64,000 nt of DNA from Escherichia coli (GCF_024298765.1 NZ_CP101210.1), one strand, 5' to 3'; shown: positions 7,620 to 29,543, numbered from the stretch's first letter. The notes: generated from the letters alone by a model not told the origin. A program made the numbers and translations.

Positions 7620-7772
7620 ATGCTGACAAAATATGCCCTTGTGGCAATCATCGTACTGTGTTGTACAGTACTGGGATTCACGCTGATGGTAGGCGACTCG
7701 TTGTGTGAGTTGAGTATCAGAGAACGTGGTATGGAGTTTAAGGCAGTTCTCGCTTACGAATCGAAGAAGTAG
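7620..7772 (+). CDS. Hok/Gef family small membrane toxin (type I toxin)
   Basis: 50-aa ORF below the track length cutoff, read by hand: [50 protein letters not shown]. Hydrophobic N-terminal helix plus the conserved DSLCEL...AYES pattern of Hok family toxins; RBS GGGAGG upstream. Confidence 0.7.
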
Positions 7773-7798: not shown

Positions 7799-8009
7799 TA
7801 CTGAATTGTGATGGTTTGGTCTCCTGCACCCTTTTTTAATTTATATTGTTTATGTGAATATTATGCCTATGTTTATTATTTATATATATTATGGATGAAA
7901 ATCATTTAATTATTCACAATGTAAATATTTTATTGAAAGATATATGTCACAGATAATTTTTAATATATGCGTGAATATCCTTTAAGTTTTACTGAAGGAT
8001 AAAAATATT

Positions 8010-10667
8010 GTGACTTTCTTTTATTTCTGGGGAAAAACCCGACGCGGCGAGAAAGACGGGGGCGAAGACTATCACCTTCTTTGCTGGCATTCGCTGGATG
8101 TAGCCGCGATGGGCTATTTAATGGTTAAAAGCAATTGCTTCGGACTGGCTGGCTATTTTCGTCAATTAGGTTTCGCTGACACGGAGCTGGCAGCACAATT
8201 TTTCGCCTGGCTGCTGTGCTGGCACGATATTGGAAAATTTGCCCGCTCTTTTCAGCAACTTTACCTGCACCCACAACTCAAGGTTCCGGAAGGCGCAAGA
8301 AAGAATTACGAAAAGATCTCTCATTCAACGCTGGGCTACTGGTTGTGGAACCATTATTTAAGTGAATGTCAGGAGTTGCTTCCTTCATCTTCACTCTCTC
8401 CGCGCAAACTTAAACGGGTGATGGAGATGTGGATGCCCATGACTACCGGGCATCATGGTCGACCCCCTGAGCGTATGGATGAACTGGATAATTTTCTGCC
8501 TGAAGACAAAGGTGCCGCACGAGATTTTCTCCTTGCAATCAAGGTACTGTTTCCGCTCATAGAGATCCCCACATTCTGGGATGATGACGAGGGCGTTGAA
8601 CTTATAAAACAACTTTCCTGGTATATCTCTGCAACCGTCGTACTTGCAGACTGGACGGGATCGTCAACGCGATATTTTCCACGCGTTGCACAGGCAATGG
8701 ATATTGAAGATTACTGGCAGAAAACTTTAGTTCAGGCTCAAAACGCCTTAACCGTCTTTCCTCCAAAAGCAGAAAGCGCGCCTTTCACCGGAATTAATAC
8801 GCTGTTTCCTTTTATTGAGAATCCGACACCGCTACAGCAAAAGGTGCTGGATCTGGATATCAGCCAGCCGGGACCACAGTTATTTATTCTGGAGGATGTA
8901 ACCGGCGCAGGTAAAACAGAAGCGGCGCTTATCCTGGCGCACAGGTTGATGGCTGCGGGGAAAGCGCAGGGTTTGTTTTTTGGCCTGCCAACAATGGCAA
9001 CGGCCAATGCCATGTACGATCGACTGGTCAAAACCTGGCTTGCTTTCTATTCGCCAGAGTCCCGCCCCAGCCTGGTGCTGGCACACAGTGCCCGAACATT
9101 AATGGACCGCTTTAATGAATCACTCTGGTCCGGTGATTTAGTCGGGTCAGAAGAACCGGATGAACAAACGTTCAGTCAGGGATGTGCGGCCTGGTTTGCC
9201 GACAGTAACAAGAAGGCGCTACTGGCTGAAATTGGCGTCGGCACGCTGGATCAGGCGATGATGGCTGTGATGCCGTTCAAACATAATAATCTGCGGCTTC
9301 TGGGACTGAGTAACAAAATCCTGCTGGCTGATGAGATCCATGCCTGTGACGCTTACATGTCATGCATTCTTGAAGGGCTGATCGAGCGGCAGGCGCGTGG
9401 CGGAAACAGCGTCATTTTGCTTTCTGCCACGTTATCTCAACAGCAGCGCGACAAACTCGTCGCCGCCTTTGCGCGTGGTATAGAGGGCCAGCAAGAAGCT
9501 CCGTTGCTGGAAAAGGATGATTACCCCTGGCTGACGCACGTTACGAAATCCGATGTGCATTCACACCGGGTAGCGACGCGCAAAGACGTTGAGCGCAGCG
9601 TGAGTGTGGGTTGGCTTCATAGCGAACAAGAGTGTATTGCGCGTATCGAATCGGCGGTAAGTCAGGGGAAATGTATCGCCTGGATCCGAAATTCTGTCGA
9701 TGACGCCATCCAGGTTCATCGTCAGTTACTTGCCCGCGGCGTCATTCCTGCTTCCAGCCTTTCACTTTTTCATAGCCGCTTTGCTTTTAGCGATCGCCAG
9801 CGAATTGAAACGGAGACGCTGGCACGCTTTGGTAAAGAAGACTGTTCACAGCGTGCCGGAAAAGTCCTCATTTGTACTCAAGTCCTGGAGCAGAGCGTTG
9901 ACTGCGACCTGGACGAAATGATTTCCGACCTTGCCCCTGTTGATTTACTGATCCAGCGGGCGGGGCGATTACAGCGGCATATCCGCGATATTAATGGTCT
10001 GTTAAAGCGTGACGGAAAAGACGAGCGTTCCCCTCCTGAATTTCTGATTCTGGCTCCCGTCTGGGACGACTCTCCGGGTGACGAATGGTTTGGCAGCGCC
10101 ATGCGTAACAGTGCATATGTCTACCCCGATCATGGGCGAATCTGGCTGACGCAGCGTGTGCTGCGTGAGCAAGGCGCTATTCAGATGCCACACGCAGCCC
10201 GGCTTCTTATTGAATCAGTCTACGGTGAAGACGTGGCAATGCCGGAAGGATTTGCCCGCAGTGAGCAGGAGCAAGTGGGCAAATATTACTGCGATCGCGC
10301 AATGGCTAAAAAGTTTGTCCTGAACTTCAAGCCTGGCTATGCCGCCAATATCAACGATTACCTTCCGGAAAAGCTGTCGACACGTCTGGCTGAGGAATCT
10401 GTTTCCCTGTGGCTGGCTACCTGTATTGACGGTGTGGTGAAGCCTTATGCCACCGGTGCTCACGCATGGGAAATGAGCGTTGTCAGAGTGCGTCGAAGCT
10501 GGTGGAAAAAACATCGGGATGAGTTTTCTTTACTGGAAGGGGATGCGTTCAGGCAGTGGTGCATTGAACAGCGGCAAGATCCGGAGATGGCAAACGTGAT
10601 TTTAGTCACCGATGACGAAAGTTGCGGGTATTCGGCTATGGAAGGATTGACTGGCAAGGTTGGTTGA
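8010..10667 (+). CDS. cas3: CRISPR-associated helicase/nuclease Cas3 (type I-E)
   Basis: 885-aa ORF starting at GTG 8010 (AAGGA 10 nt upstream); HD-nuclease-like N-terminus (H..LDVAA, HDIGK) and DEAD/DEAH helicase motifs (GAGKTEAA, DEIH); first gene of the cas operon. Confidence 0.9.
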   Translation: MTFFYFWGKTRRGEKDGGEDYHLLCWHSLDVAAMGYLMVKSNCFGLAGYFRQLGFADTELAAQFFAWLLCWHDIGKFARSFQQLYLHPQLKVPEGARKNYEKISHSTLGYWLWNHYLSECQELLPSSSLSPRKLKRVMEMWMPMTTGHHGRPPERMDELDNFLPEDKGAARDFLLAIKVLFPLIEIPTFWDDDEGVELIKQLSWYISATVVLADWTGSSTRYFPRVAQAMDIEDYWQKTLVQAQNALTVFPPKAESAPFTGINTLFPFIENPTPLQQKVLDLDISQPGPQLFILEDVTGAGKTEAALILAHRLMAAGKAQGLFFGLPTMATANAMYDRLVKTWLAFYSPESRPSLVLAHSARTLMDRFNESLWSGDLVGSEEPDEQTFSQGCAAWFADSNKKALLAEIGVGTLDQAMMAVMPFKHNNLRLLGLSNKILLADEIHACDAYMSCILEGLIERQARGGNSVILLSATLSQQQRDKLVAAFARGIEGQQEAPLLEKDDYPWLTHVTKSDVHSHRVATRKDVERSVSVGWLHSEQECIARIESAVSQGKCIAWIRNSVDDAIQVHRQLLARGVIPASSLSLFHSRFAFSDRQRIETETLARFGKEDCSQRAGKVLICTQVLEQSVDCDLDEMISDLAPVDLLIQRAGRLQRHIRDINGLLKRDGKDERSPPEFLILAPVWDDSPGDEWFGSAMRNSAYVYPDHGRIWLTQRVLREQGAIQMPHAARLLIESVYGEDVAMPEGFARSEQEQVGKYYCDRAMAKKFVLNFKPGYAANINDYLPEKLSTRLAEESVSLWLATCIDGVVKPYATGAHAWEMSVVRVRRSWWKKHRDEFSLLEGDAFRQWCIEQRQDPEMANVILVTDDESCGYSAMEGLTGKVG

Positions 10668-15319: not shown

Positions 15320-16529
<1,210 letters not shown>

Positions 16530-16625
16530 GTTATCCGTTCTTTAAAAATAAGGAAATGTTTTAATTTAGTTGGTAGATTGTTGATGCGGAATAAATTTGT
16601 TTAAAAACAGTTATGTATGCTTAGT
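16530..16625 (+). promoter_or_regulatory. CRISPR leader (AT-rich, array promoter and integration site)
   Basis: About 96-bp AT-rich segment between the cas2 stop and the first repeat. Confidence 0.6.
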
Positions 16626-17935
16626 GTGTTCCCCGCGCCAGCGGGGATAAACCGCATTGAAAACATTGCCTTTATTTTATTTTTTGGTGTTCCCCGCGCC
16701 AGCGGGGATAAACCGGTGCCGCCGCTGGGCACTTCCTTCCCGTGAGTGTGTTCCCCGCGCCAGCGGGGATAAACCGCCCTGATAGCGTCCAGTTGAATGC
16801 GCGCCCGCGTGTTCCCCGCGCCAGCGGGGATAAACCGGCAGGCACGGGCAATATCAGACTCGGTCAAAGGTGTTCCCCGCGCCAGCGGGGATAAACCGCT
16901 CGGTTGTTTTCATATTACCGGCCTGCCACTGTGTTCCCCGCGCCAGCGGGGATAAACCGACAATATCCCGGACCGGGCGCTGATTTAGTCAGTGTTCCCC
17001 GCGCCAGCGGGGATAAACCGCGGACGGTGGGAATATAGAAAATCCGTCCACCGTGTTCCCCGCGCCAGCGGGGATAAACCGTTATACTCTTTTCATCGAC
17101 TAAGGAGGGGAGGGTGTTCCCCGCGCCAGCGGGGATAAACCGCAATAACGCAGCATCCAGGAAGCTGTTTCCGCGTGTTCCCCGCGCCAGCGGGGATAAA
17201 CCGCGATCGGTGAAGAGGTCCGCGAAATACTCACTGTGTTCCCCGCGCCAGCGGGGATAAACCGGCGATAGTTGATTCAGCCGCGCCAGCGAATGTGTGT
17301 TCCCCGCGCCAGCGGGGATAAACCGGGGCCGCCGCGAATTTACACACGATTCAATACGTGTTCCCCGCGCCAGCGGGGATAAACCGAACTGGTGCGCGAC
17401 GGCTGGCTAACAAAACGAGTGTTCCCCGCGCCAGCGGGGATAAACCGCGTGGCTGCGCTGGCCGTTGCAGCAGTTTGATGTGTTCCCCGCGCCAGCGGGG
17501 ATAAACCGCGTAAACGCCCCGTCGCCATTAATTTCGGGGTGTGTTCCCCGCGCCAGCGGGGATAAACCGTGGGATGAGCAAATAACGTCGTTTCCTAGAA
17601 AGTGTTCCCCGCGCCAGCGGGGATAAACCGCCGCCGTGCCAGTGATCCTCATACGGCCTGTTGTGTTCCCCGCGCCAGCGGGGATAAACCGAAATTAAGA
17701 ACGGCGTAAACGACGGCAGCATGGTGTTCCCCGCGCCAGCGGGGATAAACCGGTGATGATTCAGAGCAGACATTAGCCCGCGCTGTGTTCCCCGCGCCAG
17801 CGGGGATAAACCGGGTAAAAACACGGTCTGAACCGACATTCATGTGTGTTCCCCGCGTCAGCGGGGATAAACCGGACGCACTGGATGCGATGATGGATAT
17901 CACTTAGAATTCCCCGCCCCTGCGGTAGAACTCCC
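16626..17935 (+). CRISPR. Type I-E CRISPR array: 21 repeats of GTGTTCCCCGCGCCAGCGGGGATAAACCG plus a degenerate terminal repeat, 21 spacers of 32 nt
   Basis: Repeats counted by hand at 16626, 16687, 16748 ... 17846 with an exact 61-bp period. Repeat 21 (17846-17874) carries one substitution (GCGTCAGCG); the terminal repeat 17907-17935 (GAATTCCCCGCCCCTGCGGTAGAACTCCC) matches about 18/29. Confidence 0.97.
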
Positions 17936-17955
17936 AACTCCCATTTTCATACCCA

Positions 17956-18993
17956 TCAAGACGCCTTCGCCAGCTCCTTCACCAGCGGTAGCATTATCCG
18001 CATAACATCACGGCAGCGACGTTCTATTCTTCCTGGAAGTGCCTTATCAATATGTTGTTGATTATCCAGTCTTACGTCATGCCAGCTATTTCCCGCAGGG
18101 AATGCAGCTGTTTTTGCGCGTTGCTGATAACCATCCTTATTCCCAAGATTCCAATTTGTTGCTTCTACCGAAAGTACGGCAATACCGGCTTTGTCGAAAA
18201 CTTCGGCGTCATTACAACAGCCAGTACCCTTCGGATAATTTTTATTCAAACCCGGATTGGTCGTTGCGGCAATTCCATGACTACGCGCAATTGCCAGCGC
18301 CCTGTCGTGCGTTAATTTCCTTACTGCTTCAGGGGTTTTTACACCGCTGTTGAAATACAATTTATCGCCAACAATTAAGTTATCGAGATTAATCACCAGC
18401 AGCGTATTTTTCTTTTCGGTGTCACTCATCCGCTTGAGTAAATTCTCAGCGCCTAATTTTCCTTCCTCTTCGCCGCTGGTCGCCACAAATCGAATACCAT
18501 ACTCGGTAGGCGTATTTTTCAGGCGTTCAGCCAGTTCCAGCATGACACCTAAACCTGCGGCGTTATCATCCATTCCTTGTAACGTTAGCCCGCCGAGATT
18601 GGCATCGGCGTCAGCATCGCTCAGCGGGGCGTAAGTATCCAGATGCGCCATAATGATGATCTGCTGCGGCGCTTTGCCTTCATGAGCGGCAATCACCGTA
18701 CTTCCCGTCACGTTATGCCAGCTCTTGCGATTATCGCGGGCGGTATAAATATACCGACTATTAAATGTCCGAATATCACTGCGATAACCCATTTGCTGAA
18801 ACTGCTGGCGAATATAATCGGCAGATAACATTTCTGCAGGAGTTCCGGTCATGCGTCCCGGAAAGAAAGTAGCAATATGTCGTGCCTGGGTATTAGCAAA
18901 ATCGCCAGGTTTAGGTGACGAGGCGTGTACGGGGAGAATAAAGCATACGCCGAGCGCCAGGGCAGCGGTACGGTGGCGCAATGCGGAAAACAT
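17956..18993 (-). CDS. iap: alkaline phosphatase isozyme conversion aminopeptidase
   Basis: 345-aa ORF with signal peptide; recognised as Iap; convergent with the CRISPR array as in E. coli. Confidence 0.9.
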   Translation of the reverse strand: MFSALRHRTAALALGVCFILPVHASSPKPGDFANTQARHIATFFPGRMTGTPAEMLSADYIRQQFQQMGYRSDIRTFNSRYIYTARDNRKSWHNVTGSTVIAAHEGKAPQQIIIMAHLDTYAPLSDADADANLGGLTLQGMDDNAAGLGVMLELAERLKNTPTEYGIRFVATSGEEEGKLGAENLLKRMSDTEKKNTLLVINLDNLIVGDKLYFNSGVKTPEAVRKLTHDRALAIARSHGIAATTNPGLNKNYPKGTGCCNDAEVFDKAGIAVLSVEATNWNLGNKDGYQQRAKTAAFPAGNSWHDVRLDNQQHIDKALPGRIERRCRDVMRIMLPLVKELAKAS

Positions 18994-19244
18994 AGTGAGT
19001 CCTTAAATACCATGCAAATTTTTTTACCGCCATAGTATGAAACTGCCGCTGCGCTAAAACAATTTCAAATCTTCCTAAACGCCCGAAATCCGGTGCCTTA
19101 AGCACTTTTTGATATTAGCTTTGCCAAATCGTTATTCCGTTAAGGAACTACTCATTCTAATTGGTAATTTCATTCGTTCTCTTACGCTCCCTATAGTCGA
19201 AACATCTGATGGCAAGAAAATAGCGGTATTGCAAAGGAACGGTT

Positions 19245-20153
19245 ATGGATCAAAAACGACTTACTCACCTGCGGCAACTGGAGGCGGAAAGCATCCACAT
19301 TATTCGCGAGGTGGCGGCAGAATTCTCAAATCCGGTGATGCTCTACTCTATCGGTAAAGATTCCAGCGTCATGCTGCATCTGGCGCGCAAGGCGTTTTAT
19401 CCAGGTACGCTGCCTTTCCCGTTGCTGCATGTCGATACCGGCTGGAAATTCCGCGAGATGTATGAGTTCCGCGATCGTACGGCTAAAGCCTACGGCTGCG
19501 AGCTGCTGGTGCATAAAAACCCGGAAGGCGTGGCGATGGGGATTAATCCATTCGTTCATGGCAGCGCGAAACATACCGATATTATGAAAACTGAAGGCCT
19601 GAAACAGGCGCTGAATAAATACGGTTTTGATGCCGCCTTCGGTGGTGCGCGCCGTGACGAAGAGAAATCCCGCGCTAAAGAGCGAATCTACTCTTTCCGT
19701 GACCGCTTCCATCGCTGGGATCCGAAAAATCAGCGCCCGGAGCTGTGGCACAACTACAACGGGCAAATTAACAAAGGCGAAAGCATTCGCGTCTTCCCGC
19801 TCTCTAACTGGACCGAGCAGGATATCTGGCAATACATCTGGCTGGAAAATATCGACATTGTTCCGCTGTATCTCGCTGCGGAACGTCCGGTTCTGGAACG
19901 CGACGGTATGTTGATGATGATTGATGACAACCGTATCGACCTGCAACCGGGCGAAGTGATCAAAAAACGGATGGTGCGTTTCCGTACGCTGGGCTGCTGG
20001 CCGCTGACCGGTGCGGTGGAGTCAAATGCACAAACACTGCCGGAGATCATCGAAGAGATGCTGGTTTCCACCACCAGTGAACGTCAGGGCCGCGTGATTG
20101 ACCGCGACCAGGCGGGGTCTATGGAGCTGAAAAAACGTCAGGGGTATTTTTAA
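19245..20153 (+). CDS. cysD: sulfate adenylyltransferase subunit 2
   Basis: 302-aa ORF recognised as CysD (PAPS reductase-like fold, SIGKDSSV motif). Confidence 0.95.
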
Positions 20154-29135: not shown

Positions 29136-29543
29136 CTATTTGCTCATCATCTTGCGCACCAGCTGCATAAACAGCTCCTGCTCTTCTCCACTCAAACGCC
29201 CCAAAAATTCCTCATCCACACTGTCACCTATCGGTATCGCCGCAGCAAGTATCTTTTCGCCTTCGGCAGTCAGCCAGACAAAGCGTCGCCGCTTGTCAGC
29301 GGCGTCATGTTCACGTCTGACTAAGCCACGATTTTCCATTCTTGCCAACATTTCTGCCAGCGTTGCTTTGGTGCTGACTGCTGCTTCTATCAGTGCCACC
29401 TGTTCGATACCAGGCTTATCAGCAATGGCGCGCATCACCGCGTACTGTGGTTTGGTCAGGTCAGGTAACTCGTGCTGCCAGCGAGCTGTATGCTGCTGAA
29501 AAAGCTGTCGTAACTGATGGAACGCTTTATTTCGTAACGCCAT
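29136..29543 (-). CDS. hosA: MarR/SlyA-family transcriptional regulator HosA
   Basis: Track ORF 29136..29576; likely 135-aa protein from MALRNKAFHQLRQLF; winged-helix MarR-like sequence; recognised as the SlyA homologue found next to rpoS in non-K-12 E. coli. Confidence 0.75.
   Translation of the reverse strand: MALRNKAFHQLRQLFQQHTARWQHELPDLTKPQYAVMRAIADKPGIEQVALIEAAVSTKATLAEMLARMENRGLVRREHDAADKRRRFVWLTAEGEKILAAAIPIGDSVDEEFLGRLSGEEQELFMQLVRKMMSK

Follow-up and report, generated by a model that had tools for sequence, protein, structure and literature searches.

The convergent meeting of a type I-E CRISPR array with the iap gene in Escherichia coli leaves one to ask where transcription of the pre-crRNA ends and what becomes of RNA made beyond the last repeat. 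We looked at one such junction within a stretch of 64,000 nt of E. coli DNA (NZ_CP101210.1; hereafter the window, from whose first base all positions are counted). An earlier note on this DNA had placed the end of the array close against the iap stop codon with no recognisable terminator between them, so that polymerases running past the array would produce RNA antisense to iap. The features referred to below are collected in Table 1.

Table 1 Features of the array-iap junction and its surroundings in the window
Feature	Position	Strand	Description
cas2e	16236..16529	+	TIGR01873 Cas2e, 133 bits; annotated at identical coordinates in MS1679
CRISPR leader, I-E1 variant	16530..16625	+	96 nt, AT-rich
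boxA-like motif GTTCTTTAAAAA	16537..16548	+	10/12 to GCTCTTTAACAA; ends 77 nt before repeat 1
Type I-E CRISPR array	16626..17874	+	21 regular repeats and 20 of the 21 spacers, period 61 nt
Last (oldest) spacer	17875..17906	+	32 nt; conserved among array-bearing E. coli in alignments
Extended terminal-repeat hairpin	17906..17934	-	12 bp including G.U pairs (predicted fold)
Degenerate terminal repeat	17907..17935	+	GAATTCCCCGCCCCTGCGGTAGAACTCCC; 18/29 to consensus
C-rich, G-poor stretch, candidate Rho loading (rut) region	17909..17986	+	35 C, 10 G, 24 YC dimers
Gap, terminal repeat to iap stop	17936..17955		20 nt; homologous in E. albertii
iap (alkaline phosphatase isozyme conversion aminopeptidase)	17956..18993	-	345-aa ORF; TGA at 17956-17958

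Anatomy and inheritance of the junction

The array is built of 21 regular, partly palindromic 29-nt repeats of type I-E (GTGTTCCCCGCGCCAGCGGGGATAAACCG), which start at positions 16626 to 17846 with every spacing being 61 nt, and of 21 unique spacers of 32 nt each. The cas genes adjoin it: cas6e, cas1e and cas2e were recognised by equivalog matches upstream on the + strand, cas2e closes the type I-E cas operon, and the AT-rich leader that starts directly downstream separates cas2 from repeat 1. Leaders near-identical to this one are present in E. albertii, O157:H7 and Pseudocitrobacter. The annotation of MS1679, a strain that is collinear with the window from its first base onwards and nearly identical in sequence (upstream of the array 2 substitutions in 16.6 kb, downstream 4 in 31 kb), shows the complete cas3-casABCDE-cas1-cas2 set. 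We take + to be the crRNA-sense strand because the cas genes and the leader lie upstream on it and the array closes, at its distal end, with the decayed repeat.

The final regular repeat, at 17846-17874, agrees with the consensus in 28 of 29 positions. A 22nd repeat would be expected to start at 17846 + 61 = 17907, and the decayed repeat lies exactly in this register; scores equal to or above its own occur at only 6 of the 124,944 off-array positions on the two strands of the window. Register and an identity of 18/29 agree on 17935 as its end, where the earlier note had put it. It has the attributes of a degenerate terminal repeat, being leader-distal, iap-proximal and preceded by a conserved ancestral spacer. 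This last spacer and the degenerate repeat form the tandem at the iap-proximal end that has been put forward as a recombination 'anchor' and is kept in all main E. coli lineages (Almendros 2014, PMC3903273).

On the other side of the gap, positions 17956-17958 read TCA on the + strand, that is TGA on the minus strand, and close an ORF that matches the iap equivalog NF007568 over its full length (residues 1-345) with 702.7 bits against a cut-off of 298. RefSeq annotates iap both in the near-identical MS1679 and in K-12, and with cysD at 19245-20153 the cysD-iap-CRISPR synteny is present. The stop codon is thus where it had been claimed to be, on the strand opposite to the array, and that a polymerase leaving the array is antisense to iap follows from orientation, the + strand being crRNA-sense and iap lying on the - strand.

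None of this is peculiar to the window. CRISPR repeats were first noticed in 1987 adjoining iap (Ishino 1987, as cited in PMC3497052), and the K-12 CRISPR-I (CRISPR2.1)/iap junction occupies the same site, cysH-cas-array-iap-cysD, and shares with the window the convergent orientation, the last spacer, a homologous decayed repeat, the 20-nt gap and the distance to the stop (Ishino et al. 1987; Diez-Villasenor 2010; Almendros 2014, PMC3903273). The two differ in that the window carries the I-E1 cas and leader variant (cas2e of 97 aa; leader like those of O157:H7, E. albertii and Salmonella) and K-12 the I-E2 variant, and in spacer content, the window having 21 spacers. The junction is found in 3343 of 5426 complete E. 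coli genomes (~62%), with the window type of terminal repeat in ~2217 and the K-12 type in ~1126 of them. The remaining ~38% are without it, and in the array-less strain MS8345 a hok/gef gene lies 124 nt from iap instead.

A comparison of iap loci from 80 Enterobacteriaceae species identified type I-E arrays convergent on iap in 11, where 14-91 nt separate the last repeat that can be recognised from the stop codon (14 nt in Salmonella diarizonae, 14-32 in Citrobacter, 27 in Raoultella and 54 in Enterobacter), and a co-directional array at iap in none of the 80. E. albertii has the same convergent geometry and a homologous 20-nt gap. Over Salmonella, Citrobacter, Raoultella, Enterobacter and E. 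albertii the distance is 14-55 nt. The post-array sequence is not conserved from genus to genus. From the convergent arrays in these 11 species and in E. albertii we infer that the abutment is old and inherited. The iap-array junction of the window is therefore an ordinary, inherited and already known one.

Terminators and structure at the array end

A terminator scan detected no intrinsic terminator on either strand from 17472 to 18295, and the junction has no G+C-rich hairpin with an immediate U-tract. The claim that no recognisable terminator separates the array from iap therefore holds for the intrinsic type; for the Rho-dependent type it does not stand as worded, as a rut-like composition is present on the + strand (see below). 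When the same rule was re-implemented and applied to the iap loci of the 80 species, no terminator was found between array and iap in the 11 other array-abutting species, and 47 of the 69 array-less iap loci were also without one; the contrast between array-bearing and array-less loci is only suggestive. In some array-less genera, Kosakonia/Phytobacter among them (AAAAAGGGAGC-ATCG-GCTCCCTTTTT), a clean bidirectional terminator follows iap directly. Such bidirectional terminators are at the same place as the window junction, between convergent units, but the window hairpin at 17906-17934 has no flanking U/A tracts and falls outside their definition on both strands. A weak hairpin followed by a T-rich site in antisense iap (AACGTCAC..GACGTT, at ~+67 to +120), which occurs in E. 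albertii and MOD1-EC7003, was dropped as a candidate because its stem is mismatched in the window and it is absent from the predicted fold. A search of 16300-19300 against Rfam gave no match at E<=1, and hence no described RNA family at the junction.

In the terminal repeat just 4 bp of the Cas6e stem are left (CCGC/GCGG). The 5' end of the repeat itself, (G)GAGTTC, returns as an exact reverse complement in the tail, GAACTCC, and the repeat is predicted to fold into an extended hairpin. One could therefore suppose that the decayed repeat is kept as a structural element of the iap 3' end, a REP-like hairpin ~20 nt past the stop that would define or protect the 3' end of the mRNA and curb antisense transcription of the array from iap. 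The predicted energies on iap-sense RNA, -15.1 kcal/mol for the window allele and -20.5 kcal/mol for the K-12 allele (z about -3.3 to -4.5 against shuffles), are consistent with such a role, as is the lack of any other iap terminator, but there is no U-tract after the hairpin on either strand, the + strand continuing CAACTCCCAUUUU and the - strand AAGUGAUAUCC.

The alleles can be read in two ways. The window allele (AGAATT-CCCCGCCCC...) departs from that of K-12 (GGAGTTCCCCCGCCTC..., also given as GGAGTTCC...) by two G-to-A changes in the outer stem, which weaken the predicted crRNA-sense hairpin from -17.9 to -6.6 kcal/mol and stay paired, as G-C to G.U, on the iap-sense strand only. Both variable stem positions are, however, C-to-T-type transitions and this asymmetry could be chance; with two common alleles and a few rare ones the variation is too thin for covariation, and selection and drift are inseparable. 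The match of the GAACTCC tail to the 5' end of the repeat recurs in a rare, less decayed allele, MEC2025-PR, which has a full Cas6e stem and the same tail (8 genomes, 100% identity). Against this, the terminal-repeat element is missing in Escherichia sp. MOD1-EC7003, the terminus of E. coli SCPM-O-B-8794 is a different one, the E. albertii tail (AATATCT) is only partly complementary, and the extended palindrome was not seen at the array terminus in any other genus examined. Persistence of the tandem in all main E. coli lineages would fit selection for the hairpin, but the DNA-level 'anchor' idea (PMC3903273) or plain inheritance already explains its retention, and a role of the hairpin in iap is in our view unlikely. 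We also considered the terminal repeat to be a palindromised chimera of a forward 5' half and a reverse-complement 3' half; this matches the E. coli tail GAACTC but is supported neither by the E. albertii tail nor by any other genus, and was rejected.

Rho loading sites (rut) are ~80 nt long, C-rich, G-poor and unstructured, and Rho-dependent terminators suppress antisense and untranslated transcription. The 78-nt C-rich tract of the window runs from the terminal repeat across the gap and over the final ~10 codons of iap (~30 nt), read in antisense. In being C-rich, G-poor, weakly structured, untranslated and ~70-80 nt long it has the composition of a Rho loading site; the mean unpaired probability in the predicted ensemble is 0.93 for the gap and 0.55-0.58 on either side of it. 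The likeness to known rut sites is one of composition only (35 C and 10 G in 78 nt, largely unpaired). The C-minus-G value of 17909-17986 is the second-highest distinct peak in the 64 kb, where about ten distinct peaks reach a value of at least 21 and one exceeds that of the junction, and ~11 of the 25 excess C are accounted for by conserved C-terminal codons of iap read in antisense, which are there with or without an array. These ten or so similar peaks and the share of the signal that is iap codon content set the tract apart from known rut sites. The iap-sense RNA of the junction is G-rich (10 C and 33 G).

Every array-bearing E. coli sampled has a C-minus-G of 24-26, against 6 for the array-less MS8345. 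C-richness as a general property of array-iap junctions was rejected, the median C-minus-G in other genera being 3, and judged from these sequences it is specific to E. coli.

Fate of transcripts leaving the array

The leader carries a boxA-like motif, and the same motif was found at an equal distance from the first repeat in Salmonella, Enterobacter, Pseudocitrobacter, K. grimontii, Phytobacter and the divergent K-12 leader, the position being kept in at least 10 genera or variants. When the leader was shuffled, a match of 10/12 arose in only 22 of 5000 cases. The array of Salmonella Typhimurium CRISPR-I is, like that of the window, a type I-E array directly downstream of cas2, and its tested boxA lies 78 bp upstream of the array, as against 77 nt in the window (PMC7665894). 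In S. diarizonae, too, the array leads into the 3' end of iap, across a gap of 14 nt. Within Salmonella I-E arrays Rho terminates transcription and boxA/Nus prevents this only partly, such that the use of distal spacers is still Rho-limited despite an intact boxA (Stringer et al. 2020, PMC7665894). Recruitment of NusB/E-SuhB and boxA-dependent protection from Rho have been demonstrated only in Salmonella and Vibrio (PMC7665894), and a role of GTTCTTTAAAAA in E. coli is suggested by its likeness to the tested Salmonella boxA. By homology polymerases at the window array are probably Rho-resistant, and hence more of them would reach the array end. The Salmonella junction differs from that of the window in its terminal repeat, where decay is confined to the 3' end, and in not being markedly C-rich (C-minus-G of 2 at the same register).

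We therefore favour the following course of events. Transcription of the array would proceed on the + strand, starting in the cas operon, the leader or both, the polymerase would probably gain a Nus antitermination complex at the boxA-like motif, as Salmonella homology suggests, and Cas6e would cut the transcript at every regular repeat. With no intrinsic terminator to halt them, polymerases that reach 17874 would copy the last spacer, then the decayed repeat and the 20-nt gap, and so enter iap in antisense. The trailing RNA, from the last Cas6e cut at ~17867 onwards, would be untranslated, C-rich, G-poor and largely unstructured, and Rho may be expected to stop most of it before more than a few hundred nt of iap have been copied in antisense. 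Cas6e cleaves a repeat stem at its 3' base and remains bound (PMC3497052); because the stem of the terminal repeat is decayed, RNA past the last Cas6e cut is probably unprocessable and not Cascade-loaded. This RNA should be unstable, and would decay fast because the decayed repeat cannot hold Cas6e/Cascade. As the cas genes of E. coli are repressed by H-NS (PMC3497052), any antisense effect on iap would be small and incidental, and no regulatory device.

Built on an established anatomy, orientation, lack of an intrinsic terminator, base composition and conservation, the reading of an ordinary inherited junction without a dedicated terminator, where read-through is incidental and curbed by H-NS, Rho and decay, has in our estimate a probability of roughly 70%; Nus loading, Rho termination, rapid decay and a negligible effect on iap are its inferred parts. 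The boxA-like motif, which favours read-through, and the C-rich tract, which favours Rho termination, pull in opposite directions, and read-through could exceed the level supposed here because a Nus-modified polymerase resists Rho. Neither iap nor cas2 nor CRISPR is listed in a K-12 3'-end map, and a full-text literature search found no published 3'-end data for the locus or read-through into iap. RNA ends at the last repeat would be an ambiguous sign of termination, because Cas6e cuts make ends there regardless.

Substantial read-through of the pre-crRNA could act as a cis-antisense RNA or by transcriptional interference at the iap 3' end, in which case activation of CRISPR-Cas would lower or alter iap expression. 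The units are convergent, only 20 nt separate the terminal repeat from the stop and intrinsic terminators are absent; a conserved boxA-like element implies a Rho-resistant polymerase at the array end, but in Salmonella Rho still limits the expression of distal spacers (PMC7665894), the rut-like tract of the window would curtail the antisense RNA, and the locus is silenced by H-NS (PMC3497052). The abutment persists across genera, for which one inherited insertion site is sufficient to account, and there is no sequence sign of selection for coupling, the post-array sequence differing between genera. The many E. coli genomes without the junction, among them the strain with hok/gef next to iap, also speak against a regulatory link, which we regard as improbable.

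One might further see in the decayed repeat a strand-asymmetric insulator, with a Rho-loading tract on the crRNA strand and a protective G.U hairpin on the iap strand. Read-through on the crRNA strand would then end just inside antisense iap, the 3' end of the iap mRNA would be fixed and protected and anti-crRNA transcription limited, and selection beyond the 'anchor' effect would explain the tandem in nearly all array-bearing E. coli; we hold this to be quite improbable. The least probable alternative is that head-on collision of convergent polymerases in the junction sets both 3' ends, as has been proposed for convergent E. coli genes in a preprint (bioRxiv 10.1101/2022.10.23.513370), since, although terminator-like sites are absent from both strands for hundreds of nt and the G-rich iap-sense RNA would be a poor Rho substrate, collision requires both units to be transcribed appreciably together when CRISPR-cas is H-NS-silenced (PMC3497052), and iap has no entry in the K-12 3'-end map.

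Bearing on type I-E array expression

The anatomy of the junction is already documented and is common to thousands of genomes. The question at stake is a minor one, namely how transcription of type I-E pre-crRNA is brought to a close and whether polymerases antiterminated by Nus run on into the adjacent gene. Its answer would leave our understanding of CRISPR or of iap unchanged. It would refine models of array expression, in which Rho is set against boxA, and of the insulation of horizontally acquired, H-NS-silenced loci from housekeeping neighbours.

Spacing and composition of the array-iap junction

We compared the separation of array and iap in species other than Escherichia coli. Superficieibacter electus retains a 2-repeat array remnant with a 91-nt gap to the iap stop, and on the strand heading to iap this gap is extraordinarily C-rich, with 39 C and 3 G in 78 nt. 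Pseudocitrobacter vendiensis (locus L040) and K. grimontii carry extra DNA, giving an array-iap separation of 359 nt. Read by eye, the extra DNA of L040 contains a candidate hairpin and T-tract, CAGTCCGG-AA-CCGGACTG-TTTT, while a rule-based scan returned no terminator-like site in this locus. The orientation of this putative element, as judged by eye, would fit the stopping of transcription bound for iap, and unlike P. vendiensis the E. coli junction is without such insulation. Within the 64-kb window the highest C-minus-G value for any 78-nt stretch was 26, at a peak which lies in an intergenic region and at the 5' end of the gene for hydroxyarylic acid decarboxylase subunit B; the neighbouring gene, divergently oriented, encodes a regulator of the MarR family.

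In E. coli the tail of the terminal repeat, GAACTCC, is reverse-complementary to the 5' end of that repeat, and the two ends can therefore pair as an extended hairpin at 17906-17934. The same tail is found together with a complete Cas6e stem in a rare terminal-repeat allele, GAGCTCCCCCGCGTCAGCGGGGAACTCCC, of E. coli MEC2025-PR (L094 61-89), an allele present at 100% identity in eight genomes. In E. albertii, in contrast, the tail reads AATATCT.

Further features of the window
Feature	Position	Strand	Remark
Hok/Gef family toxin gene	7620-7772	+	between cysH and cas3
boxA-like motif GTTCTTTAAAAA	16537-16548	+	directly 3' of cas2e stop; end 77 nt ahead of first repeat
Terminator-like site nearest past iap	17429-17415	-	weak
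Highest C-minus-G peak (78 nt)	29155-29232	+	value 26

Leader, cas3 and spacer content

The boxA-like motif of the leader recurs at the same distance in the leaders of Salmonella, Enterobacter, Pseudocitrobacter, K. grimontii, Phytobacter and K-12, the last of these being a different leader variant. Its position in the window agrees with that of the boxA of Salmonella CRISPR-I, which has been tested by experiment (Stringer et al. 2020, PMC7665894).

In the near-identical, collinear E. coli MS1679, cas3 is annotated at 7967-10667 (+) as a frameshifted pseudogene, and across this region the window differs by a single substitution, at 10043, and by no indel. As the longest ORF here (8010-10667, 885 aa) is out of frame with 7967, CRISPR interference may be impaired in the window, or the cas3 start may simply be mis-modelled. 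The flanks of the two genomes differ by 6 substitutions in about 48 kb. The window array (16626-17906) holds 21 spacers and that of MS1679 (16626-17386) 13, with only 9 in common; these keep their order and include the first spacer as well as the final three. Because each array has internal spacers absent from the other, the two probably derive from a longer ancestral array through internal deletions that occurred independently. The array-less strain MS8345 encodes the same Hok/Gef protein (WP_000956458.1; L003 2235-2387) 124 nt from iap, and the entire cas3-to-array segment is thus absent there.

Possible transcription from iap into the array

For iap, too, no terminator was found past the stop codon on the minus strand (17400-17955), where the nearest terminator-like site is weak. 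The RNA that would pass from iap into the array is rich in G at the junction (10 C and 33 G) and hence a poor Rho substrate. With neither a terminator nor a good Rho substrate on this strand, iap transcripts may run on, antisense to the oldest CRISPR spacers.
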